In this document: piece by piece, positions 460-14,308 of the stretch
How positions within the stretch are numbered: the first letter of the stretch is position 1
Layout: the number at the start of each line of letters is the position of its first letter
IMG/VR virus record: IMGVR_UViG_2563366923_000005
DNA: 16,693 nt
Source of the DNA: a virus
Lineage: Duplodnaviria > Heunggongvirae > Uroviricota > Caudoviricetes
Strand: one strand, 5' to 3'
The notes under the pieces: generated by a model
Seen by the model: the letters and a program-made list of their open reading frames with translations, nothing else
Told to the model about the DNA's origin: nothing
The model's database searches: none
Position numbers and translations under genes: made by a program

Positions 460-2121
460 TCAAATCCCATTAAATAAAGCCAGTCGCTCTTTGTGACTGT
501 CGCTCATATCGAAAGCAAAATCTTCGTGTTCTGCCTGGAATGTGCCGAACGCCATGAGTGCAGAAACCGCCGGGTCTATCTTGTTGGAGGATTTCTTTTT
601 GTTGGGTTTGATATTGGCGTTGGCGTCGGACTCCATCACCACGTTACCAATCGCCCAAGCCAGAACCGGATCGCCACGATGGCGCACCACCTTGCGGTTA
701 ACAAAAACCTCAAAAGATTTCGCTACCGGACTGAATTTCAGATAGGTTTGCGGGAACGGCTCCACATCGAGGCCGGCCCCCTGTAACTGGGTTCGCAAGT
801 GAGTGGCGTTCCACGTATCAAAGCCCACCAGCCGGATATTGAATGTTTCAGCATCGCGCAGGATATCGTCACGGATGCGGTCATAGTCGATACAGTCGCC
901 GGGGGTGGTTCGTATCCAGCCCGCTTTTACCCACTGGCGATAGATGGCGCGGTTTTTGTTAGCAACGTTAAGTAGCTGCGCTTCGGGCAGATAGTGCCGA
1001 GTAAGAAGCCTGATCTCGCGTTCAAACGGGAAAGCGTAACTCACGCTGGTAATATCGCTGGTTGAGGACAGGTCAAATCCGGCGTAACACTCCATCCCGA
1101 CCAGATCTTCTTCGGCATAATCGAGTGCACAGGCATCCCATGCCCCGGCACCCATCCACGGTGTAGAACCCTGACACCAGATATTGAAACGCTTGGTCAG
1201 CATCTCCACCCATTGCGACGGTATACCCCGCGCTTTTTGGATGGTGGATTCCAGCTTCGCCGCGTCAACGGACACATGCAGGTTAGGGTTGGCCTTGATC
1301 CACATTTCAGGCTGCTCAACCTCGCTTTCGTCGTCCAGCTCGTAGATCAGGACAAACAGCGAATCGTTGCTCTCTTCCCCGGCCAGAATCTGACAACAGT
1401 AGTCGTAATGCTGTTTACAGGCTGAGACAACGTTACTCCCGGCGGTCGTTATGGCGAACAAAATAGCCTCAGGACGTGCGCCCATACCCAGCTCAAGGGC
1501 GGAATAAACGCCGTTATCCGGGTGAAGGTGGTACTCATCGACAATCGCTAGGCTGGGGTTAGTCCCTTCAATGGTGGACGCTTTCGCCGCCAGCGGCTTT
1601 AGCAGGCTGTTGCTCTTCGGGAAAATGACTTTATGCGCCTGAATATTTACGCGCTTTTTCAGCGGTTTTGACAACAGGCACATCTGGCGGGCATCGTCGA
1701 ACACGATTCGGGCCTGATCCCGGCTCACCGCCGCCGTATAGATATCCTGCTGGCCCTTCTCCATTACCAGAAACCAGTTAGCCAGCATGGCGGCCACGGT
1801 GGATTTGGCATTCTTGCGCGGCACCTCAATAAAGGCGCTGCTGTACTTACGGCGGCCTGTCTCTCTGACTTTAAAGCCCAGCAGGTTAGCAAAGGCGAAC
1901 TGCTGCCACGGTTCCAGATCGATTGGCTGGCCCCGAAGCGGGCCTTTGACGTGAGGACAGAGCCGCGAGAACGCAATAAACCGCTCTACGGTCGCCGTAT
2001 CGAACTCATATCGGGGGTCATTCAGGTCTGAAAAGTACCTTTCCACGGCCTGTTTTACGCGCTTACAGGCCGGAATTTCGCCCGTTTTTATCGCATTTGC
2101 GTACTCATTCCAGACGGTCAA
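460..2121 (-). CDS. terL: Phage terminase large subunit
   Basis: 553-aa ORF with a P-loop-like segment (EVPRKNAKST) and typical length. The only possible start is TTG at 2119-2121, since an in-frame stop lies at 2143-2145 with no ATG or GTG between. It is preceded by GGAAGAGGAGGA and overlaps the terS 3' end by 17 nt. Confidence 0.9.
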   Translation of the reverse strand: MTVWNEYANAIKTGEIPACKRVKQAVERYFSDLNDPRYEFDTATVERFIAFSRLCPHVKGPLRGQPIDLEPWQQFAFANLLGFKVRETGRRKYSSAFIEVPRKNAKSTVAAMLANWFLVMEKGQQDIYTAAVSRDQARIVFDDARQMCLLSKPLKKRVNIQAHKVIFPKSNSLLKPLAAKASTIEGTNPSLAIVDEYHLHPDNGVYSALELGMGARPEAILFAITTAGSNVVSACKQHYDYCCQILAGEESNDSLFVLIYELDDESEVEQPEMWIKANPNLHVSVDAAKLESTIQKARGIPSQWVEMLTKRFNIWCQGSTPWMGAGAWDACALDYAEEDLVGMECYAGFDLSSTSDITSVSYAFPFEREIRLLTRHYLPEAQLLNVANKNRAIYRQWVKAGWIRTTPGDCIDYDRIRDDILRDAETFNIRLVGFDTWNATHLRTQLQGAGLDVEPFPQTYLKFSPVAKSFEVFVNRKVVRHRGDPVLAWAIGNVVMESDANANIKPNKKKSSNKIDPAVSALMAFGTFQAEHEDFAFDMSDSHKERLALFNGI

Positions 2122-2461
2122 GCTCGTCCTCCTCTTCCGTTTCTACCGGGTTACGGCGGCGGCTTACCGGATCAAAGCCCAGCAGCGACGACATTTTAAT
2201 CATGATTTTTTCAGCATCGGCCTTTGCACTCAGTGCAGGATTTCGGCTCTCGCCCCCCTGGCTGTTAACAATGCTGAACCCACGGCTGGCAAGGTCTTCC
2301 ACTGCTTTGCGGTACATCGAATAGTTGACGCAAAAAAGCTCAAGGTTGTTCCAGTCGGCGGGTGTCAGATCGCCACGCTCGGCCAGTTGCTTCGCTTTCG
2401 CTTTCCACTGCTGCGCGGCTAACTCATCAAGGTAAGCTGGCGGTTTTGGTGGTCTTGCCAT
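2105..2461 (-). CDS. terS: Phage terminase small subunit (P27-family-like)
   Basis: 118-aa product starting MARPPKPP (ATG at 2459-2461), with a pattern typical of P27-type small terminases (NPALSAKADAEKIM, FDPVSRRR). The ORF-track extension up to 2629 is G-rich and judged spurious. Confidence 0.8.
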   Translation of the reverse strand: MARPPKPPAYLDELAAQQWKAKAKQLAERGDLTPADWNNLELFCVNYSMYRKAVEDLASRGFSIVNSQGGESRNPALSAKADAEKIMIKMSSLLGFDPVSRRRNPVETEEEDELDRLE

Positions 2462-2736
2462 AAAAATTTCTCGTTTCCATCGCGTTTTATTTTCAAAAAA
2501 ATCACCGTGCGTAAAAATTTGAGGGGGCGGGCGGTGCCTGGCACCTTGAGGTTTGTCCTGAAAACCTCCCCCACCCCGTCCATGCGGCCTGTCAGCGGTT
2601 GCGGAAGCATTCCCGCAACTCCCGTTCACGCTCGCTCATACGCTGCACAGGCTGGCGCTCATTGCGTCTGCTTCGCCCCTGCATGAAGCCATCACGGCAG
2701 CGCATCAATGATCGGTACAGATTCACCACGTCTTTC
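2462..2736. other. Candidate cos / packaging-site region between HNH gene and terS
   Basis: 275-bp non-coding gap in the position where HK97-type genomes carry cos. It holds a GC-rich block at 2521-2578 with a perfect palindrome GGTGCC-T-GGCACC (2533-2545) and an inverted repeat GAGGTTT-N6-AAACCTC (2548-2568), flanked by a G-rich tract (2521-2534) and a C-rich tract (2565-2578). Confidence 0.35.
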
Positions 2737-3180
2737 TCATTCATTTCTGCCCTCATACATCCAGTCATTGCGATGGGCTGCACGCTCTTCCTGCTCTCGG
2801 TACAGCCCTGCCTTACGGTTCGCTTTGGTGATGGGGTCTTGCTGCGTGGTCTTCTGGTTATGATGCATCTGGCATAACGGCTGGTGATTCCACTCAGGCC
2901 AGAACAGAACATCATCACCGCCGTCGATAGGGATGATGTGATCGACAATCTTTGCAGGAACGTAGAGGCCCAACTTCTGGCACTCGACACATAGCGGCTG
3001 ACGTTTCAGATACTGAGCGCGGTACTTCTCCCATGATGCTGAGTAACCACGGGCGCGACGGTGGCCGCGTCTGGCATCTTCCGCCCGCCAGGCTTCGCGC
3101 TTGTGCTCATCGCACTTACCAGACTTCACCCGCTTATTGCATCCCGGCTCAGTGCACCGGCGCATTGGTTGCCACGGCAT
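2737..3180 (-). CDS. HNH endonuclease (terminase-associated)
   Basis: 147 aa from ATG at 3178-3180, overlapping the connector stop (ATGA). Cys clusters (CTEPGC, CDEH, CVECQ) and an HNH-like core (LCQMHHNQK). Position between connector and terS is typical of HK97-like packaging modules. Confidence 0.85.
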   Translation of the reverse strand: MPWQPMRRCTEPGCNKRVKSGKCDEHKREAWRAEDARRGHRRARGYSASWEKYRAQYLKRQPLCVECQKLGLYVPAKIVDHIIPIDGGDDVLFWPEWNHQPLCQMHHNQKTTQQDPITKANRKAGLYREQEERAAHRNDWMYEGRNE

Positions 3181-3479
3181 CAGTACACCCCCACATCGCG
3201 ATACACAGACCACAATGCAGAGATAGCAAGGGGGATCTCTTTCGCCTCCACATCACTAATCATCGTGCGGTATTCGTACAGTTGGGAAACGTACATAAGG
3301 CATCCGATCTTGATGGCAGGAGTAAATTCCAGGCCAGCACCGAACCGTTTACCGATATGCTTCTGGCAGACTTCCAGTGACGCTTCGATGTATGCCTGAA
3401 TCATTGCATCTTCATAGGAATCATCGTTATCGATGCGACAGTGAAGTTTTGCCTCATCAAGCCCAATTAGTTCACTCAC
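3180..3479 (-). CDS. gp6-like head-tail connector / DNA packaging protein
   Basis: 99 aa with GTG start at 3477-3479 preceded by GGGAGGG, and an in-frame stop directly upstream. N-terminus LDEAKLHCRIDNDDSYEDAMIQAYIEAS fits the gp6-like connector pattern. Confidence 0.75.
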   Translation of the reverse strand: MSELIGLDEAKLHCRIDNDDSYEDAMIQAYIEASLEVCQKHIGKRFGAGLEFTPAIKIGCLMYVSQLYEYRTMISDVEAKEIPLAISALWSVYRDVGVY

Positions 3480-3513: not shown

Positions 3514-4755
3514 TCATGACGCATCCTCCTTATTCTCAGAACCGGTACTGACCTTCACTTCCTGCTTCCATGCCTGGCTGTATTCGTCGCCCCCTTCACG
3601 CGGCGGCATCCCTTCGCGTTCGCGGGCTTCGTTCGGGTTCATGATCCCGTTCTTGATACCGCGCTCATAAGTTGCGTAACGTTCGGTTGGAGTGGCTCGA
3701 AGAAGATCGGCAGAGTCGAACTCCACCTGATAACGAATTCCGGGTACAGGCGATGCCACCAGCAACGCGGATTTAATCTGCTGCTCAAAGTTCGCCAGCC
3801 ACGGACGCATCGTCATGGTGAGAAATGCGCGGCTCGCCTCACTAAAGTTGCTGTAGGTGCTGTTGCTGTATTCCTGCAGGAAGATGGGGGACACGTTGAA
3901 CATGCGGGCAATGTCTTCAATGGAGAAGCGCCGGGAGGCCAGCCACTCAGCATCCTGATTGCTCATGCCAAGCTGCTTATAGTCCATGCCACCTTCAAGG
4001 ATCGGTGTTTTACCGGCATTTCTGGCACCTTTGTAGCGCTCAAGCGCGTCCAGCGCCTGTTTACCCTTCACACTATCGAGCCATTCAGCAGTAGTGACTA
4101 CGCCCGCCGCCATCATGCCATCTTTCATAATGCTGGCGCCGTGGCGCTGCTGGGCCAGACCTAACCCCAGCGCCTCACGGCAGATGGTGATCGGCGAGCG
4201 CCCCAGAAAACCATCATCGGTCGAGTAACGCAGGTGCAGAATCTCTTCCTGCAGGTAGGTGCGCACTGCCCCGGTAAACGGTTCAGTAACGGTGTATTTG
4301 TACTTATGCTGGCCGATACGCTCAGGAACAACCGCCCCCGGCGCATACGGATGCAGGGATTGCGGCTGGCCGTCACGGCCCCACTGGATCACCGCATAGG
4401 CGTTACCATTCAGCAGGCAATGACGCATCATCGTGCGCTTGAACTGGTAAGGCGTCTGACAGTCGTTCGGTTGCTCGTTAAGGAGAAAATCCACCGGGTG
4501 ATTGCTTAGCCACTCCCGCGCTTCTCGGCCGTTATCGTTGCGCACGCGGTAGAGGTAGCAGGGCATTGTTGCCACTGCCTCGCTGATAACTGATATGGCG
4601 TTCATGACCGCCGGCAGAGATTCCGCAGTACCGGCAGACACATATTCGCCTGATCCGGTATTTGGAATCCCTGCCATCGCCAGAAACTCATCAATCGTCA
4701 TGCTGCGCTGTTCGGATGGCTCAGATTTACGGCCAAAAGGCCAGATATTCCACAT
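3514..4755 (-). CDS. Phage portal protein (HK97 family)
   Basis: 413-aa ORF directly downstream of the protease gene with a 1-nt gap. Size and sequence character are typical of HK97-type portals. Confidence 0.88.
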   Translation of the reverse strand: MWNIWPFGRKSEPSEQRSMTIDEFLAMAGIPNTGSGEYVSAGTAESLPAVMNAISVISEAVATMPCYLYRVRNDNGREAREWLSNHPVDFLLNEQPNDCQTPYQFKRTMMRHCLLNGNAYAVIQWGRDGQPQSLHPYAPGAVVPERIGQHKYKYTVTEPFTGAVRTYLQEEILHLRYSTDDGFLGRSPITICREALGLGLAQQRHGASIMKDGMMAAGVVTTAEWLDSVKGKQALDALERYKGARNAGKTPILEGGMDYKQLGMSNQDAEWLASRRFSIEDIARMFNVSPIFLQEYSNSTYSNFSEASRAFLTMTMRPWLANFEQQIKSALLVASPVPGIRYQVEFDSADLLRATPTERYATYERGIKNGIMNPNEAREREGMPPREGGDEYSQAWKQEVKVSTGSENKEDAS

Positions 4756-4756
4756 A

Positions 4757-5317
4757 TCACAGCCCCGCTAAGTCAGCCCAGCGTCGGCGGTTATCACCAG
4801 CACGGCGCAGTTCAGGATGTTGGGAGAACAGAGAACGGTGCGCAATTTCCACGCCGGACTCAGGGTAAGCAGGCATAGAAGTAACGGTGATCTCCCGCAG
4901 CTCGGCAGCGGTAACAGTGCGAATATACGGTGTAGGAGTAATATCCCAGGACTCTTTCAGCGCACGGAATCCGAAGCTCATGCCGGAAATGTCTCCACGC
5001 TCCACCAGCTCCAGCACATCATTGCCAAGTTGGGTGTTTGGCGGGGTCAGCTCGAAACGCAGCCCGGTATCATCTTCGGACAACACCAGCGTGCCGGATT
5101 TGGTACGCCCCAGCAGTTGGGTATAGTTATGCTCGTACAGTGCACGCACATCGCTACCGGATGCCAGGCTGTCTTTAAACGCCCCCGGCGCAAACTGCTC
5201 GCGGAACTCATCCCAGATCACCTCTGACAGGCTGTTCCAGCGCACGGCATAGCCCACCAGCTTTTTGTTGCTGGCGCTCAGTTCGGAGGTACGGATTTCA
5301 AAATCGATTGTTTTCAT
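4757..5317 (-). CDS. Prohead maturation protease (HK97 family)
   Basis: 186 aa; the segment LVGYAVRWNSLSEVIWDEFREQFAPGAF matches the conserved N-terminal pattern of HK97 prohead proteases. GGAG lies 8 nt upstream of the ATG. Confidence 0.88.
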   Translation of the reverse strand: MKTIDFEIRTSELSASNKKLVGYAVRWNSLSEVIWDEFREQFAPGAFKDSLASGSDVRALYEHNYTQLLGRTKSGTLVLSEDDTGLRFELTPPNTQLGNDVLELVERGDISGMSFGFRALKESWDITPTPYIRTVTAAELREITVTSMPAYPESGVEIAHRSLFSQHPELRRAGDNRRRWADLAGL

Positions 5318-5340
5318 TGTTGGACTCCACAGAGGGCAAA

Positions 5341-5358
5341 AAGGGGCCGAAGCCCCTT
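5341..5358 (-). terminator. Intrinsic terminator-like hairpin between capsid and protease genes (probable partial terminator)
   Basis: On the minus strand: AAGGGGC-UUCG-GCCCCUU followed by UUUGCCC, so a 7-bp GC-rich stem with a UUCG tetraloop and a run of 5 U. It sits in the 51-nt gap after the capsid stop. Confidence 0.45.
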
Positions 5359-5368
5359 AAACGTCAGA

Positions 5369-6535
5369 TCAGGAACCGGAACCGGAAAGCTCAAGCACCT
5401 TGATGGCGTTGGAGTCCACCACACCACCGCCTAGGTATTTATCGGTGTGCACCTTGTAGAAACCAGGTTCGGTGATGTTGTCGGGGCGGGTACGCACGCC
5501 AGTGGTGTGATCCACGATGAAGTAACCGCGCTTAAAGTCGCCGACTGCCAGGAACGCTTCACCCGCAGCCGCATCAGGCATGGTTTCCAGGTATTGAACC
5601 GGACGGCCAAGGAGGGTATCGGGAGAGTCAGCGACGAGACGATCACGCCAGATGTAATCCCCGTTGCCGTTTTTCAGCTTTTGCAGCGTAGCGGCAGTGT
5701 TGGAGTTCATCACCCATACGGCATTTTTGCGGTATTTGGCTTTCAGCTTATACAGCAGGTCGATAAGACCATCAGAGGAAACGGCAGCAGCCTCCATCTT
5801 CTCCAGCGTGCCGAACGGACGGGTTTTATCGCTGGTGGCCGCACGCGGATAGGACAGGAACCCTTTGGATTTTTTATCACCGTCGCCGTTCACAAAGTCG
5901 GTTTCTTCGGTAGCAGTGAAGGTGTCGGTAATTTCGGAAGACAGCCAGCCCAGAATATCAACTTCGGAGAAGTCGAGAATTTCCTGAGTGGTTTTCGGGT
6001 AGGCGTAGATCGGGTTGAGTTTGATATCAACGCGCTCCATCTTCGGTGTGCTGGTTTCGGTACGCGCTTCGCCTTCGGTGCCGCGCTTAACGGTAGTGCC
6101 GCCCACTGACACCAGCTTCTGGTATTCGTTGGTTTTGGTGGTCTTCACCGTGGCGATGGAGCGCATAACGCTGTCATCCTGCAACTGGCGCATGATCTCT
6201 TTGTCCAGCTCAGGGATAACGGTATAGCCGCCGTCAGCCTGCACTAACGTGGAGAGAGAGCGGGTATCGCCGGTCATGATGTAGTGGCGCAGCTCATCGT
6301 TGCTTACACCTTTACCTTCAACAGAAGTACCAGGCAAATTGCGCTGATCGTCGGCGACGGCCTCAAGGCGGGTAATTTCAACTTCAAGCGCATCAGCCTG
6401 GGCGCGGAGTTCGTCGAACTGCTTTCCCTCTTCATCGTTCAGGCTTCGCTTTTCGCTGTCAGCTTTTTCCAGCATGGAACGCATCTGGGTTTTGAGTGCG
6501 GTTTTCTGCTGGCGTAATTCAAGTAATTTCTTCAT
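5369..6535 (-). CDS. Major capsid protein (HK97 fold) with N-terminal delta (scaffold-like) domain
   Basis: 388 aa from ATG at 6533-6535 (MKKLLELRQQK). The N-terminal ~100 aa are coiled-coil rich, like an HK97 delta domain, followed by a capsid-like body. The track extension to 6652 is judged spurious. Confidence 0.9.
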   Translation of the reverse strand: MKKLLELRQQKTALKTQMRSMLEKADSEKRSLNDEEGKQFDELRAQADALEVEITRLEAVADDQRNLPGTSVEGKGVSNDELRHYIMTGDTRSLSTLVQADGGYTVIPELDKEIMRQLQDDSVMRSIATVKTTKTNEYQKLVSVGGTTVKRGTEGEARTETSTPKMERVDIKLNPIYAYPKTTQEILDFSEVDILGWLSSEITDTFTATEETDFVNGDGDKKSKGFLSYPRAATSDKTRPFGTLEKMEAAAVSSDGLIDLLYKLKAKYRKNAVWVMNSNTAATLQKLKNGNGDYIWRDRLVADSPDTLLGRPVQYLETMPDAAAGEAFLAVGDFKRGYFIVDHTTGVRTRPDNITEPGFYKVHTDKYLGGGVVDSNAIKVLELSGSGS

Positions 6536-6563
6536 GGAGTGGTTTCCGTAACAATTAATGTTG

Positions 6564-6656
6564 AGACGTGAAACCTGCGCTTGGAGGGATGTCCACCTGG
6601 AAAGGAAACCGTCGCAGAACGGGAAAAAACCAGGTGGACAGTGGCGGCTCACGTCT
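6564..6656. promoter_or_regulatory. Nested inverted repeats upstream of the capsid gene
   Basis: Perfect 10-bp inverted repeat GTCCACCTGG (6591-6600) / CCAGGTGGAC (6630-6639) around a 29-nt A-rich spacer, nested inside a 7-bp inverted repeat AGACGTG (6564-6570) / CACGTCT (6650-6656). It lies 27-124 nt upstream of the capsid ATG on the minus strand. Confidence 0.35.
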
Positions 6657-6797
6657 GAGTGCCACTCTTCAAGATATACATAATAATCAATGAGTAAACA
6701 GCTCTATGTTGTCGCAAACAGCAGCGAAAACAGGAGAACAAATAATTTACAAAGTTTGATAATATGAACGGGAAAAAAACCACTTCTGGGGGATTTT

Positions 6798-7310
6798 ATG
6801 GACTTCGATTTTGATGATATGGCATACCCGGATATTTTTTTAATTTCCGGCGAGGAGTTTAAAGGAAGCCGGAACACAGGAAAAAATCAGGTAGATATCC
6901 CGTTTACTGACGAACCGCAAATTGAATTGGGCGATATTCTGATTCAGAAGATTGGAAGCCGTGAGTTAAGCCTTAAAGTTGTCGATCTTTCAATATCAAA
7001 GAATGGAACGCTGAACGTGGGTACAACGCATCCTCACTTACTGACGTTATCCGTAGAGAATCTTTCTTCCAACGCACACAGGACAGCAAAGAGTATGAAT
7101 ACTTTTAATATTGGCTCCGTCAGTGGTGAGCAAGTTCAAATAGGTGAAAGTAATCATATGCTGGTGAATATCAGTATTACTGAACTTGTCGAGAAAGTGG
7201 CTAACTCTGGCGATCCACAGGCTAAATCAATGTTGAAACAGTTACTGGAAAATAGCACCGTTGCCAGTATCGTTGGCGCTGGCGCTTCTGCGCTATTAGG
7301 TCTGCTTTAA
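6798..7310 (+). CDS. Hypothetical protein with C-terminal hydrophobic Gly/Ala-rich tail; accessory gene on the opposite strand
   Basis: 170-aa ORF with GGGGGA 4 nt before the ATG. C-terminus TVASIVGAGASALLGLL looks like a single tail anchor or glycine-zipper segment. About 43% GC in a sampled 60 nt. Only sizeable plus-strand gene inside the island besides the RHH gene. Confidence 0.6.
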   Translation: MDFDFDDMAYPDIFLISGEEFKGSRNTGKNQVDIPFTDEPQIELGDILIQKIGSRELSLKVVDLSISKNGTLNVGTTHPHLLTLSVENLSSNAHRTAKSMNTFNIGSVSGEQVQIGESNHMLVNISITELVEKVANSGDPQAKSMLKQLLENSTVASIVGAGASALLGLL

Positions 7311-7315
7311 AATAT

Positions 7316-7335
7316 GGCCTGGGAAAAACCAGGCC
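7316..7335. terminator. Bidirectional intrinsic terminator between convergent accessory genes
   Basis: GGCCTGG-GAAAAA-CCAGGCC hairpin with TTT downstream on plus and an A-rich stretch upstream. A second 8-bp hairpin GGCTGGAT / ATCCAGCC (7349-7375) spans the stop codon of the minus-strand gene. Confidence 0.6.
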
Positions 7336-7357: not shown

Positions 7358-7693
7358 TTATTCTTTATCCAGCCCCCACTGATAGAAAGCCCAGCTTGCC
7401 GTTGATTGTGCGCTATGGATAGCGTTCTCAAGGCCAGAGGTTGGGTACGACAAATCAGCCGCCATCCTCTGTAGAAGATCGAGGTAAGCGCTGGCGTCTT
7501 TCGACAACTCTTGCTCCCCTTCTTCCAGCCCAGACTGGTACGATTCCAGATCAAGCTTTTCAGAAGTGACAAACGCACTCAGAGCCAGAAAATCCGTCAC
7601 TGTAATCTCATCTTTATTTGAAAGCTCATCAACGGCGCTGTAGAGAAACTTAAGATCGCTCATATGCCCGTTATCTTTGCCAATCAGTTTCAT
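7358..7693 (-). CDS. Hypothetical acidic protein (accessory / possible interference or immunity function)
   Basis: 111-aa ORF with AGAGGT 6 nt upstream of the ATG at 7691-7693. Acidic and probably helical, with no recognisable catalytic motif. Lies immediately downstream of the iteron origin. Confidence 0.6.
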   Translation of the reverse strand: MKLIGKDNGHMSDLKFLYSAVDELSNKDEITVTDFLALSAFVTSEKLDLESYQSGLEEGEQELSKDASAYLDLLQRMAADLSYPTSGLENAIHSAQSTASWAFYQWGLDKE

Positions 7694-8034: not shown

Positions 8035-10170
8035 TTATTCTTCTCCATCTTCCGCAACCTGGTGAAGCACATAAACGTTGATTTGACGCCCATCAATACG
8101 CGGGGATTTCTGCTGGTATCCACGCCCGCTGGACGGCTCAGAAAGCAAGCCAGCAGCGGCAAGCACGCGGGCAAACTGCCTGGCGTTAAAGCCCTGAGCT
8201 ATCTCCTTCTCAAACGTTGCGGGGAACGTATAGAACACCAGCGGCGAATCATCATGGCTGCTTTTGCGCTTTCGATACCCGGCCAGATCGCGAATCGGCA
8301 TACTGGACGGATCATAGGGCAACGGTGCAAAGCGGCTTAAACCGTAGGCATTCAGGAACGCCTCGCACTGCTCGATGATCTGCTGGTGCTCTTTGTTACC
8401 CGTGCCGAACTCTTTCACCCAGGCGTTAAAGCTATGCTGGATAGCGTCACGGCTGGCCTGTTCACTCCATCCGGTGATTGATGCACCAGTTACCAGCGCG
8501 GCTTCGAGGATTGCAAAGCGTTCGGCCACGCGGTGTACCTGCTCACCGTAATCCGCCGGGATGAGGCCGCGCCAGCGCGTTTGCGCGTCACGCACCGCCT
8601 GTTTAGCCTCCTGCTGGTTAGCCGCCAGCCATTTAACCCACTCACGCCCCGCCGCCCCGTGGTTATCAATCCAGGCTTCTTTCAGTGCGTCAGCATGAGC
8701 CTTGCCGTTTGGCAGACCGTTAAAGGCCGTCGATTTCTCCATAGGGATGTTGAGCAAGCGCACCAGTTGGCCCGCTTTCACTTTCAGCCCACCAGCAGCC
8801 AGGAAGGTTTCAATATCCATTTCCCCGGTGCTGATCGCCACAGTGCGCCAGCGTTTAAGCTCCCGATTGCCGCCCTCTTTGGCTCCCTGCAACTTTCCGG
8901 CACCGTTAAACAGGGTGTAAGCAGACGTGGCAACATCTTTGGCACTGCTGCCCTGTCCTACCTCATCAAGCGGTAACAGGCTGTCGTTATGCGCCTCCGC
9001 TTCGTTTGCTATGCCAAGCGCAGTACCGTACCAGGTAAGCCGCAACGCATCAGGCTCACCCCACAGGCTGCTCGCAATATTGGCGGTAGTGGTCTTACCG
9101 GCGCTCGACTGCTCGAACAAATGGACGCCGAAACCATCAGCACCCACCAGGCCAATAAGCGGCGCGGATAATGCCGCTGCCACGCCCAGCATCATGGACG
9201 GATTGCCCCCGGCCAGACGGGCGACGGAATCCCGCCAGGTGGCAGCAGTACCAGCAATGGCATACCCGGAAGATGCAGCGCTGCGACCGTTAAAGAGAAT
9301 GGGCGTCTCTGGATCACCAATCACTTCACCATCAGGCATGATATATGCGCCATGATGCCAGCCAGTGGTATGGGTGATAATCCATTCCCGATCAGTGCCG
9401 CTTTGCTGCAACCAGTCGGCCAGAATCGCCCGGAAGGTGCTTTTAGTGGTCACATTCACCCCACCAGCTTTAAGTGAGCGCCAGCCGTCGCGCTCACCGA
9501 TATCAGCACAGGGGATCGCCCTGGTAATATCTTCATGGCCACGCGGCGAACGCCAGCGCAAAACAAGATAGCGCTCTGCCCCGTCACTACCGGAGCCGAC
9601 CACCTCAAGAGGCGAGCACAGCCACGTTTCGTTATTGATGATCTCGCCACTATCCTTGTCCACCTTTGGCGTGATCCAGTACAGGCCATCGCTCCGGCTC
9701 TCCACGCGGGGTTTGAGTTCATCGCCCGGTTCAGGCTTTGGCTCCCGTTTTTTTACAGGCAGGTTCACCACAATGCTTTCCCCGCGTTCGGCCTCTTCTT
9801 TGAGACGTGGAAGCCTGCCCGTCCAGTCCTCCTTCGGCTGAGGCTCAAACATGCCATTAAACAGCCTGGCCTCTTTCACATCCGCCAGCGCCAGTTTGGT
9901 TGCGATAGTGCTTATCTGCATTTCGGAAAGTTCGCCAGCGCGGATCACACGAACACTGCGACGGCCGTTATCAACAATGTTTAACCGTTCCAGTTCCGCA
10001 AGTTGCCTTTTACCCAGATAAACAGGCGGTACATCATCCCATGCCCTTTTACCTTCGCTCTCGATCCAGTGCTGCACATGTGAATAGGCATCTTCACCCG
10101 CAAAGATAATCGCCTCTGTAAATTTATCTTTCGGCAGGAATTTAATATTCGGGGCATTCTTCATCTTCAT
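8035..10170 (-). CDS. Replication initiator / primase-helicase (DUF927-type P-loop NTPase)
   Basis: 711 aa with Walker A motif FEQSSAGKTT. Size and position (last gene of the operon, next to the iterons) match satellite or PICI Rep proteins. AAGGTG RBS; start overlaps the upstream gene's stop (ATGA). Confidence 0.85.
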   Translation of the reverse strand: MKMKNAPNIKFLPKDKFTEAIIFAGEDAYSHVQHWIESEGKRAWDDVPPVYLGKRQLAELERLNIVDNGRRSVRVIRAGELSEMQISTIATKLALADVKEARLFNGMFEPQPKEDWTGRLPRLKEEAERGESIVVNLPVKKREPKPEPGDELKPRVESRSDGLYWITPKVDKDSGEIINNETWLCSPLEVVGSGSDGAERYLVLRWRSPRGHEDITRAIPCADIGERDGWRSLKAGGVNVTTKSTFRAILADWLQQSGTDREWIITHTTGWHHGAYIMPDGEVIGDPETPILFNGRSAASSGYAIAGTAATWRDSVARLAGGNPSMMLGVAAALSAPLIGLVGADGFGVHLFEQSSAGKTTTANIASSLWGEPDALRLTWYGTALGIANEAEAHNDSLLPLDEVGQGSSAKDVATSAYTLFNGAGKLQGAKEGGNRELKRWRTVAISTGEMDIETFLAAGGLKVKAGQLVRLLNIPMEKSTAFNGLPNGKAHADALKEAWIDNHGAAGREWVKWLAANQQEAKQAVRDAQTRWRGLIPADYGEQVHRVAERFAILEAALVTGASITGWSEQASRDAIQHSFNAWVKEFGTGNKEHQQIIEQCEAFLNAYGLSRFAPLPYDPSSMPIRDLAGYRKRKSSHDDSPLVFYTFPATFEKEIAQGFNARQFARVLAAAGLLSEPSSGRGYQQKSPRIDGRQINVYVLHQVAEDGEE

Positions 10171-12808: not shown

Positions 12809-13093
12809 TTACGCGGATTTACGGTTGTAAGGGGTGTTGACGTTCTCAACAGCAGGTGGATTGCGAACCCACCAAAGAACATCTGACAGAAGCCATGCGC
12901 AACTATTACGGCCAAAGTGGCAGCGTGGCGGGAATTTACCTTCGTTCTCCATATACCAGCGGGTGGAACGGGAAAGGCTGGTTATTTCGAAGCATTCACT
13001 TTCACGAATACGGCGATCAAACTTAATGCCATATTCTGCGAGAATGGTGCGGCGTTGTTCTGGTGTTGGCGGGGTAAAACGAGTATTTGACAT
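12809..13093 (-). CDS. alpA: AlpA-family transcriptional regulator (excisionase-like)
   Basis: 94 aa; LSRSTRWYMENEGKFPP...GRNSCAWLLSDVLWW fits the AlpA HTH pattern. GGAGGA RBS. Immediately upstream of the antirepressor gene. Confidence 0.8.
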   Translation of the reverse strand: MSNTRFTPPTPEQRRTILAEYGIKFDRRIRESECFEITSLSRSTRWYMENEGKFPPRCHFGRNSCAWLLSDVLWWVRNPPAVENVNTPYNRKSA

Positions 13094-14216: not shown

Positions 14217-14308
14217 AACGCTACCCTCAACGCCCCTAATTAACTTGCGAGCCAGGCGGGTAGGGTTTCCCGCTTTTCGGTTGGCCGACCTAGACTCGCA
14301 AGACCAGT

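Follow-up and report, generated by a model that had tools for sequence, protein, structure and literature searches.

A conserved terminator-like hairpin directly after the capsid gene in the packaging operon of capsid-forming satellites

Results and Discussion

In the 16,693-nt stretch of DNA analysed here (IMG/VR virus record IMGVR_UViG_2563366923_000005; hereafter the window), a GC-rich stem-loop followed by a run of five U lies on the minus strand directly after a major capsid gene, in the gap that separates it from the prohead protease gene. The element that carries these genes is a capsid-forming phage-inducible chromosomal island (cf-PICI), a satellite residing in Escherichia coli and no phage, and the capsid gene is the first gene of its packaging operon. 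We infer that the hairpin and its U run probably act as a partial intrinsic (Rho-independent) terminator, which would give rise to an abundant capsid-only mRNA and to a smaller amount of read-through mRNA. An earlier sequence-only reading had placed the hairpin in a head operon; the gene set and gene order instead identify the packaging operon of a cf-PICI satellite. These islands build small capsids of their own and are intensively studied as vehicles of interspecies gene transfer, and published work is silent on the transcription of their packaging operon.

Anatomy of the hairpin between the capsid and protease genes

The junction and the genes on either side of it comprise the following features, all on the minus strand.

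5369-6535, minus strand: major capsid gene, 388 aa from the ATG at 6535, HK97 fold (PF05065, E=7e-68; PHROG major head protein; RefSeq WP_001547827.1)
5371-5369, minus strand: capsid stop codon TGA, from the sequence
5341-5358, minus strand: stem-loop AAGGGGC-UUCG-GCCCCUU, with five G:C and two A:U pairs and a UNCG-type tetraloop
5358-5352, 5351-5348 and 5347-5341, minus strand: 5′ arm, UUCG loop and 3′ arm GCCCCUU of this stem-loop, from the sequence
5338-5342, minus strand: U run UUUUU, directly after the GC core
5328-5325, minus strand: Shine-Dalgarno sequence GGAG of the protease gene (GGAGTCC is conserved in the junction alignment)
5317-5315, minus strand: ATG of the protease gene, from the sequence
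4757-5317, minus strand: prohead protease gene of the S78 type (PF04586, E=5.7e-48)
3514-4755, minus strand: portal gene (PF04860, E=1.3e-95)

The gap between the two genes measures 51 nt and reads, with the flanking stop and start codons, UGA-UCUGACGUUU-AAGGGGC-UUCG-GCCCCUU-UUUGCCCUCUGU-GGAG-UCCAACA-AUG on the minus strand, with GCCCUCUGU between the U run and the Shine-Dalgarno sequence of the protease gene. It corresponds exactly to positions 5318-5368, which the sequence-only reading had singled out, and the 7-bp stem, UUCG loop and five U described there are exact on the minus strand. The matches to PF05065, PF04586 and PF04860 likewise uphold its gene identities, a capsid gene in first place followed by protease and portal. 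The hairpin starts 10 nt past the capsid TGA and ends 23 nt ahead of the protease ATG, and it lies in no coding region. It is both the minimum free energy and the centroid structure (ViennaRNA), with an energy of −12.1 kcal/mol for the 7-bp form and of −9.6 kcal/mol for the 5-bp GC core; the first two U of the run can also pair with AA at 5358-5357 and thereby close the stem. The opposite strand, which reads ...GCCCCUUAAACG, has no U run, indicating that the element is directional. Thus, the junction displays the features of an intrinsic terminator: a GC-rich stem-loop with a short loop on the sense strand, a U tract 3′ of the stem, and a location after a stop codon.

In a d'Aubenton-Carafa-type scoring of every perfect hairpin, which uses modern energies and of which the ranking alone is meaningful, the hairpin reached d=18.6 and was the sole site with d≥10 on either strand of the window; the runner-up, at 7316-7335, scored 4.7. 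Among 100 dinucleotide shuffles of the entire window, only two contained a site that attained 18.6 anywhere. The hairpin escaped a simple terminator scan of the window, as the 7-bp stem built by greedy extension consumes two of the five T and leaves three. No Rfam family matches the hairpin; the weak Rfam matches to ALIL (E=0.26) and to the terminal part of a Brucella sRNA (E=1.1) were dismissed as chance.

Conservation in related loci

Related junctions were collected from complete E. coli genomes, from one genome per species, from IMG/VR with the protease of the window, and from IMG/VR with Avibacterium and Proteus proteases; the IMG/VR scan with the protease alignment returned only relatives that are at least 95% identical, and the more distant proteases were then used as queries. 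The resulting sample of 199 loci (designated L plus a number) with a capsid homologue followed by a protease, corresponding to 103 distinct junctions, covers E. coli and other Enterobacterales, Morganellaceae, Pasteurellaceae and IMG/VR records.

A GC-rich hairpin is present in 96 of the 103 distinct junctions (~93%), and its GC core starts 5-13 nt past the capsid stop codon. Among these 96, TTT follows the GC core directly in 75 and at least five T occur within the first 8 nt in 74, with a mean of 4.4 T in the 6 nt downstream compared to 2.4 A in the 6 nt upstream. Most frequent among the stems is GGGGC/GCCCC, which was broken by a substitution in one of 43 close variants (L073); its loop varies freely and is mostly of the UNCG type (UUCG 22, UACG 9, UGCG 6, UCCG 3), along with some 5-nt loops. 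The Klebsiella pneumoniae ATCC 13883 (= DSM 30104) locus L008, which appears to be the published KpCIDSM30104, has the same hairpin as the window.

The hairpin at this position is formed by at least four stems of unrelated sequence, GGGGC/GCCCC, GGAGGC/GCCUCC, GGGCUA/UAGCCC and GGGCGUUCCUG/CAGGAGCGCUC, with T5-6 after each of them. Other E. coli islands carry the stems GGAGGC/GCCUCC and GGGGGC/GCCUCC, and an O157:H7 island, presumed from the host serotype to be of the EcCIEDL933 type, has GGGGCU-UAAA-AGCCCC followed by UUU. Pasteurellaceae junctions read A4-5 GGGGCUA-AUU-UAGCCC U6, that is, a GGGCUA/UAGCCC stem flanked by A and U runs, and Morganellaceae junctions read GGGCGUUCCUG-UGAUCU-CAGGAGCGCUC U5-6. 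Several relatives contain G.U pairs (GGGGGC/GCCUCC, GGGGC/GUCCC, GGGGU/GCCCC) that are A.C mismatches on the other strand, indicating that such changes are tolerated on the sense strand only.

Within ±2.5 kb around the capsid stop codon (490 kb in total), a site with d≥5 lies at the junction in 61 of the 103 loci. The 40 listed of the 43 other sense-strand sites with d≥5 all precede the capsid gene, and only four sites were seen on the antisense strand. Thus, among the sites listed, the post-capsid hairpin is the sole terminator-like signal within 2.5 kb downstream of the capsid stop codon in the surveyed loci. The packaging operon of the window contains no second terminator-like site on the sense strand, and a 12-bp terminator of its own (L001 6279-6253) marks the end of the operon, shortly beyond the window. 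The idea that the internal terminator is weaker than the one upstream of the capsid gene was dropped, as the scores of post- and pre-capsid sites did not differ clearly.

Insertions at the junction leave the hairpin on the capsid side. A free-standing gene for a homing endonuclease (HNH_3 + AP2) sits between the hairpin and the protease gene, exactly behind the former, in L031 (2459-3004), L034 (2459-2998) and L195; the hairpin remains with the capsid gene, the U run is cut to UU, and the ribosome-binding region of the protease gene has been taken over. L186 carries a 505-nt insertion with an open reading frame (ORF) of ~110 aa between the capsid stop codon and the hairpin. These insertions indicate that the element belongs to the 3′ end of the capsid unit and not to the start of the protease gene.

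Post-capsid hairpins in phages with the usual gene order

We examined seven phages with homologous capsids (PF05065) and the order portal-protease-capsid, six of which carry a strong hairpin a few to ~25 nt past the capsid stop codon. These hairpins are GGGGCGCG-GAAC-CGCGCCCC in SfIV, a stem related to it in Salmonella 118970_sal3, CGGGGCCA...UGGCCCCG followed by U5 in Vibrio K311, a hairpin followed by U6 in Geobacillus GBK2, ACCGCG...CGCGGU followed by U7 in the HK97-like E. coli phage vB_EcoS-569R6, and a 17-bp hairpin in Gordonia Kita. In the seventh, Streptococcus Javan55, the genes overlap. As in the window, the SfIV and sal3 stems start with GGGGC and end with GCCCC, and common descent of these hairpins is possible on the basis of this similarity.

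The sequence-only reading had offered the hairpin as a possible reason for the inverted gene order. This idea is not supported, given the presence of a hairpin in six of seven phages of normal order, which indicates that the hairpin accompanies the 3′ end of the capsid gene and not a particular gene order; capsid-first is simply the ordinary layout of proteobacterial cf-PICIs. The consequences for expression differ between the two layouts. In the normal-order phages the capsid gene is not promoter-proximal and termination separates the head genes from connector and tail genes, so that it cannot lift capsid mRNA above portal and protease mRNA. A leaky terminator alone can do so only where the capsid gene comes first.

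A partial terminator as the favoured mechanism

If the hairpin is a partial terminator, a part of the RNA polymerases would be stopped directly after the capsid gene. The resulting capsid-only mRNA would end in a stable UNCG hairpin that could protect it against 3′ exonucleases, and the remaining polymerases would supply a smaller pool of read-through mRNA encoding protease, portal, connector, HNH protein and terminase. One plausible source of leakiness is the ribosome that ends capsid translation and could hinder formation of the hairpin, since the capsid stop codon lies merely 5-13 nt ahead of the GC core across the family. The T=4 head of cf-PICIs contains ~235-240 capsid subunits, with 240 positions of the major capsid protein in the EcCIEDL933 head, and heads of tailed phages contain 12 portal subunits. 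Partial termination fits this demand of ~240 capsid versus 12 portal subunits and would, if true, offer a simple account of how a 15-kb satellite obtains this ratio from one operon.

Between the hairpin and the protease ATG, we found no match to a promoter consensus on the minus strand, although a consensus scan cannot exclude unusual promoters. As there appears to be no room for a promoter after the hairpin and the genes are described as one operon, the downstream genes would depend on read-through, and any termination at this site would be leaky. The opposite scenario, an efficient terminator that closes a capsid-only unit while protease, portal and packaging genes are transcribed from a separate promoter, would resemble the layout of T7-like capsid genes with their own promoter and strong terminator (PMC10134795), and in many loci terminator-like sites indeed stand on both sides of the capsid gene (see below). 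We consider it very improbable: merely 9 nt separate the U run from the Shine-Dalgarno sequence of the protease gene and ~20 nt from its ATG, the minus strand shows no promoter-like site at the junction or close to it, and a promoter upstream of the hairpin would face the read-through problem as well. Moreover, a short stem with five G:C pairs and five U is unlike a strong terminator, and the cf-PICI papers treat the packaging genes as a single operon (10.1101/2022.09.08.507074).

Several observations weigh against termination at the hairpin. The folding energy of its 71-nt context is ordinary compared to shuffled sequences (z=−0.51, and ~−0.5 on both strands), so that it is the shape, the position and the conservation of the hairpin that make the case for it. 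Within the most frequent stem, covariation is weak, with its score reached by 64 of 500 shuffles; the test is not significant because GGGGC/GCCCC is near-invariant and homopolymeric and controls with slid partners also pair, and we therefore relied on positional conservation and on replacement by unrelated stems. The U run is short (3-6 U) and is degenerate in a Xenorhabdus-like subgroup that keeps the hairpin, e.g., GUCCC-UUGUUUGG and GCCCC-UGUCUGG, which suggests that the hairpin itself is more important than termination. The SfIV, sal3 and Kita hairpins have no U run at all, which for SfIV and sal3 counts against a terminator. Five of the 103 junctions (seven loci: L154, L173, L174 with three loci, L178, L185) have a gap of 4-19 nt and no hairpin, and in L168 the gap is 43 nt and the hairpin is mutated. 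The absence of the hairpin from some relatives indicates that the element is useful but dispensable.

A further point against termination concerns the polymerase. The activator of Gram-negative PICIs is AlpA (PMC6092414), and AlpA of Pseudomonas aeruginosa is a Q-like processive antiterminator (PMC7969949). If the AlpA-family activator of the island, by analogy, rendered the polymerase on the operon terminator-resistant, little termination would be expected. We found neither transcript data on cf-PICIs nor anything on AlpA antitermination in PICIs in the literature.

Judged from the aligned junctions, the U run is under weaker constraint than the hairpin. This pattern would also be expected if the hairpin served mainly as a stabiliser of the mRNA 3′ end or as a processing barrier, with the polymerase reading through, the RNA being cut downstream and the capsid segment outliving the rest, as is the case for the upstream segments at the intercistronic hairpins of the mal and puf operons. 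We regard such a role as rather unlikely as the main function, even though the hairpin is better kept than the U run in the L144-L153, L164 and L171 types as well as in SfIV, sal3 and Gordonia Kita, and stays with the capsid gene with only UU left after homing endonuclease insertion in L031 and L034. The preference for extra-stable UNCG loops is in line with a stabiliser, as is a conserved 5′-terminal stem-loop on the capsid mRNA (P1, see below), which fits selection for a long-lived message, and the AlpA-family activator, whose P. aeruginosa namesake is a processive antiterminator (PMC7969949), might provide an antiterminated polymerase. However, an exonuclease barrier needs no T run, and yet a T run follows the hairpin at once in most lineages and after four unrelated stem types; the TTT in 75 of 96 junctions with its strong T/A asymmetry points in the same direction, and there is no known or predicted processing site downstream. 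Both roles could be combined, as a terminated transcript would end in the same protective hairpin.

It is also improbable that the hairpin has no present function and represents a relic of a phage-derived capsid 3′ end, or a neutral spacer or landing site for mobile genes. Such an origin would be in accordance with the related hairpins after the capsid gene of normal-order phages, with the loss of the hairpin in some cf-PICI relatives, and with the insertion of homing endonuclease and other genes on either side of it. A neutral 18-nt palindrome, though, would not keep its pairing where the flanking coding DNA is only ~65% identical, nor would a neutral hairpin be swapped for different hairpins at the same spot, and a stem-breaking change was seen in only one of the 43 close variants (L073). 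A partial terminator thus remains the reading that we favour.

One genome with hairpin-free junctions stands apart by its number of copies. IMG/VR genome 2836755666 harbors five related capsid-protease-portal modules (L173, L174, L176, L177, L178), all without the hairpin and with a capsid-protease gap of 4-19 nt; four of the five reside on predicted viral contigs of 42-74 kb, and L173 on a 16-kb contig.

Comparison with known post-capsid terminators

In phage T7, the classical terminator Tphi is located right after the major capsid gene, which lies in the middle of its operon with a promoter of its own, and acts on the single-subunit polymerase of the phage. In T7-like phages such as LUZ100, the capsid gene is likewise followed at once by a terminator (PMC10134795). 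The junction of the satellite resembles T7 and LUZ100 in that a stem-loop terminator, in the satellite a predicted one, adjoins the capsid gene, the most highly expressed structural gene, and in that the genes beyond it need read-through. Unlike T7, the element is a satellite with its capsid gene at the head of the operon, and its transcription presumably relies on the host polymerase; a relationship in sequence was neither looked for nor seen.

A second parallel is provided by phiX174, where Rho-independent terminators inside the operon (T_J, T_F, T_G, T_H) follow structural genes including the major capsid gene F. Its terminators T_J, T_F and T_G block 20-40% of transcription and thereby grade the transcripts to protein needs (10.1101/2020.03.05.979765), which is the mechanism that we propose for the satellite. 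In contrast to the satellite with its one internal predicted site, phiX174 is a microvirus with single-stranded DNA that has several successive terminators, the efficiency of which has been measured.

Published cf-PICIs (EcCIEDL933, EcCIGN02175 and KpCIDSM30104) have the gene set and gene order of the window. The descriptions of them that we read mention no terminator, hairpin or transcript structure, and the word "terminator" occurs zero times in the two cf-PICI preprints. Thus, the principle of a post-capsid terminator is old, as T7 and phiX174 illustrate, and its candidate instance in cf-PICIs is newly noted. For the hairpin alone, the gain lies in better annotation and not in a new concept; engineers who turn such islands into delivery vehicles may also wish to spare this site or to make use of it.

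A structured leader RNA upstream of the capsid gene

The region upstream of the capsid gene contains a second candidate RNA element with the following parts, all on the minus strand.

6536-6680, minus strand: structured 5′ leader of the capsid gene (fold energy and covariation)
6665-6641, minus strand: leader stem-loop P1 (covariation)
6639-6630/6600-6591, minus strand: outer stem of P2 (covariation)
6575-6570/6546-6541, minus strand: P3 (covariation)
6656-6649/6571-6564, minus strand: alternative helix (three-way covariation)
6678-6673, minus strand: putative −10 element TATATC, preceding the leader (region 6673-6700)
6738-6753, minus strand: conserved box TTTGTAAATTATTTGT, present once in the window and ~70 nt upstream of the putative −10 element

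The stretch between the box and the leader is variable and in many relatives contains a sense-strand terminator, e.g., CCCCTGTCTCTGATGGGGG+TTTTCTTTATATTTT, so that in those relatives terminator-like sites bracket the capsid gene. Box and terminator could be a promoter with a leader terminator, in the layout known from antitermination of the Q/AlpA type, or the end of the upstream module. After the variable stretch follow a near-invariant ATGTATATCTTGAAGAG-GTGGCACTCAGACGTGAGCCGCCAC, a long stem, the sequence of which differs among variants with the pairing always kept, and a near-invariant segment that extends to the start codon.

Folding of the 151-nt leader stretch gives z=−5.19, a stability that was matched by none of 200 shuffles. 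In 18 diverse leaders, P1, P2 and P3 together are 94.4% paired, and ten pairs carry changes in both partners; not one of 500 shuffles reached this covariation score, and pairing drops to 32-47% with slid partners. Compensatory changes support P1 and P2 well. An alternative partner for the 3′ half of P1 is TCACGUCU, located ~85 nt downstream; in three sequences, a change from A-U to C-G in P1 is accompanied by one from U-A to G-C in the alternative helix. This three-way pattern hints that the leader may adopt two mutually exclusive folds in a switch-like manner.

Of 187 loci, 134 have the P1 motif ahead of the capsid gene. When IMG/VR was scanned with the P1 motif only, a capsid homologue was the first ORF in 76 of 80 loci, the other four being cut by contig ends; the capsid start is mostly 120-150 nt downstream of the motif start, and 60-110 nt in three cases. 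The leader is absent from O157/EDL933-type, Xenorhabdus-type and Pasteurellaceae elements. A search of Rfam gave no match for it. Based on folding and covariation, the leader looks like an undescribed cis-regulatory RNA; it could be a new one and may merit more attention than the hairpin. Together, leader and hairpin may cap the capsid message with stable hairpins at both ends.

Three other interpretations of the region were rejected or appear unlikely. A leader peptide in ATGTATATC...TGA upstream of the capsid gene was discarded, as the frame is lost in GTGAC variants and Proteus-type leaders have no ATG. A sigma-54 promoter at the leader TGGCAC lacks the GC at the −12 spacing. The leader is also unlikely to be a cos site, as the island has kept the hnh-terS adjacency (2462-2736), where HNH-dependent phages usually carry cos.

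A more elaborate model would make the capsid cistron of enterobacterial and morganellaceal cf-PICIs a self-contained, regulated cassette that begins with the ~140-nt leader and closes with the terminator hairpin, and in which the leader or a Q-like AlpA switches the polymerase or the ribosome-binding site upon helper induction and the terminator acts as a regulated gate for the capsid:protease:portal ratio and not as a fixed leak. At present we consider this model unlikely.

Identity and gene content of the island

The window is 100% identical to the chromosome of E. coli KFu015 (NZ_CP147130.1), where the ~15.5-kb satellite is inserted between fis and yhdJ, a site that is also occupied in other E. 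coli strains. Nearly all genes are on the minus strand. In the direction of transcription, the genes encode integrase, AlpA-family regulator, antirepressor, DUF927 primase, capsid, S78 protease and portal, followed by head-tail connector, HNH protein, TerS, TerL and a DUF3892 protein. Features outside the junction are as follows.

3180-3479, minus strand: head-tail connector (Pfam, PHROG, RefSeq annotation)
2737-3213, minus strand: HNH gene (Pfam, PHROG, RefSeq annotation)
2105-2461, minus strand: TerS gene (Pfam, PHROG, RefSeq annotation)
460-2121, minus strand: TerL gene (Pfam, PHROG, RefSeq annotation)
12809-13093: AlpA-family regulator (Phage_AlpA, PF05930, E=2.3e-10)
8035-10170: DNA primase (DUF927 and PHROG DNA primase matches)
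Tyrosine recombinase (integrase; RefSeq annotation)

The order capsid-protease-portal-connectors-hnh-terS-terL is that of proteobacterial cf-PICIs (10.1101/2022.09.08.507074). In agreement with its assignment to this group, the element carries int, an alpA-type regulator and a primase/replicase gene at one end, its own capsid and packaging genes in the proteobacterial order (Pfam, PHROG, RefSeq annotation), and is an island of the ~10-15 kb class with its own attachment site and without tail or lysis genes. The RefSeq annotation of the ~15.5-kb island contains no tail, holin or lysin gene.

Two related records stand out. In L210 (PQ569648.1, "Klebsiella phage P12620-1", 106.5 kb), positions 93-106.5 kb are a copy of the satellite with a capsid that is 99.7% identical and the same order from int to portal; this copy ends at the record end, with all genes annotated as hypothetical, and is probably due to a chimeric assembly or a co-purified satellite. 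L019 (NZ_JABANE010000336.1) is a 798-nt scaffold of Flammeovirga aprica (Bacteroidota) with a protease fragment that is 100% identical in protein and junction DNA that has two differences in ~113 nt from the enterobacterial one, which most likely represents contamination.

Three further features of the island concern its other modules. The gap between HNH (plus a small ORF) and TerS at 2462-2736 (minus strand) is kept as in HNH-dependent cos phages and is the likely location of cos. The Rfam int-alpA RNA motif (RF02996), a known motif of unknown function, matches at 14233-14300 (minus strand) between the integrase and the next gene, with 63.6 bits compared to a gathering score of 35.8. Finally, the bidirectional terminator-like hairpin GGCCTGG-N6-CCAGGCC at 7316-7335 lies between the convergent genes 6798-7310 (plus strand) and 7358-7693 (minus strand) and closes the replication/accessory module ahead of the packaging operon.

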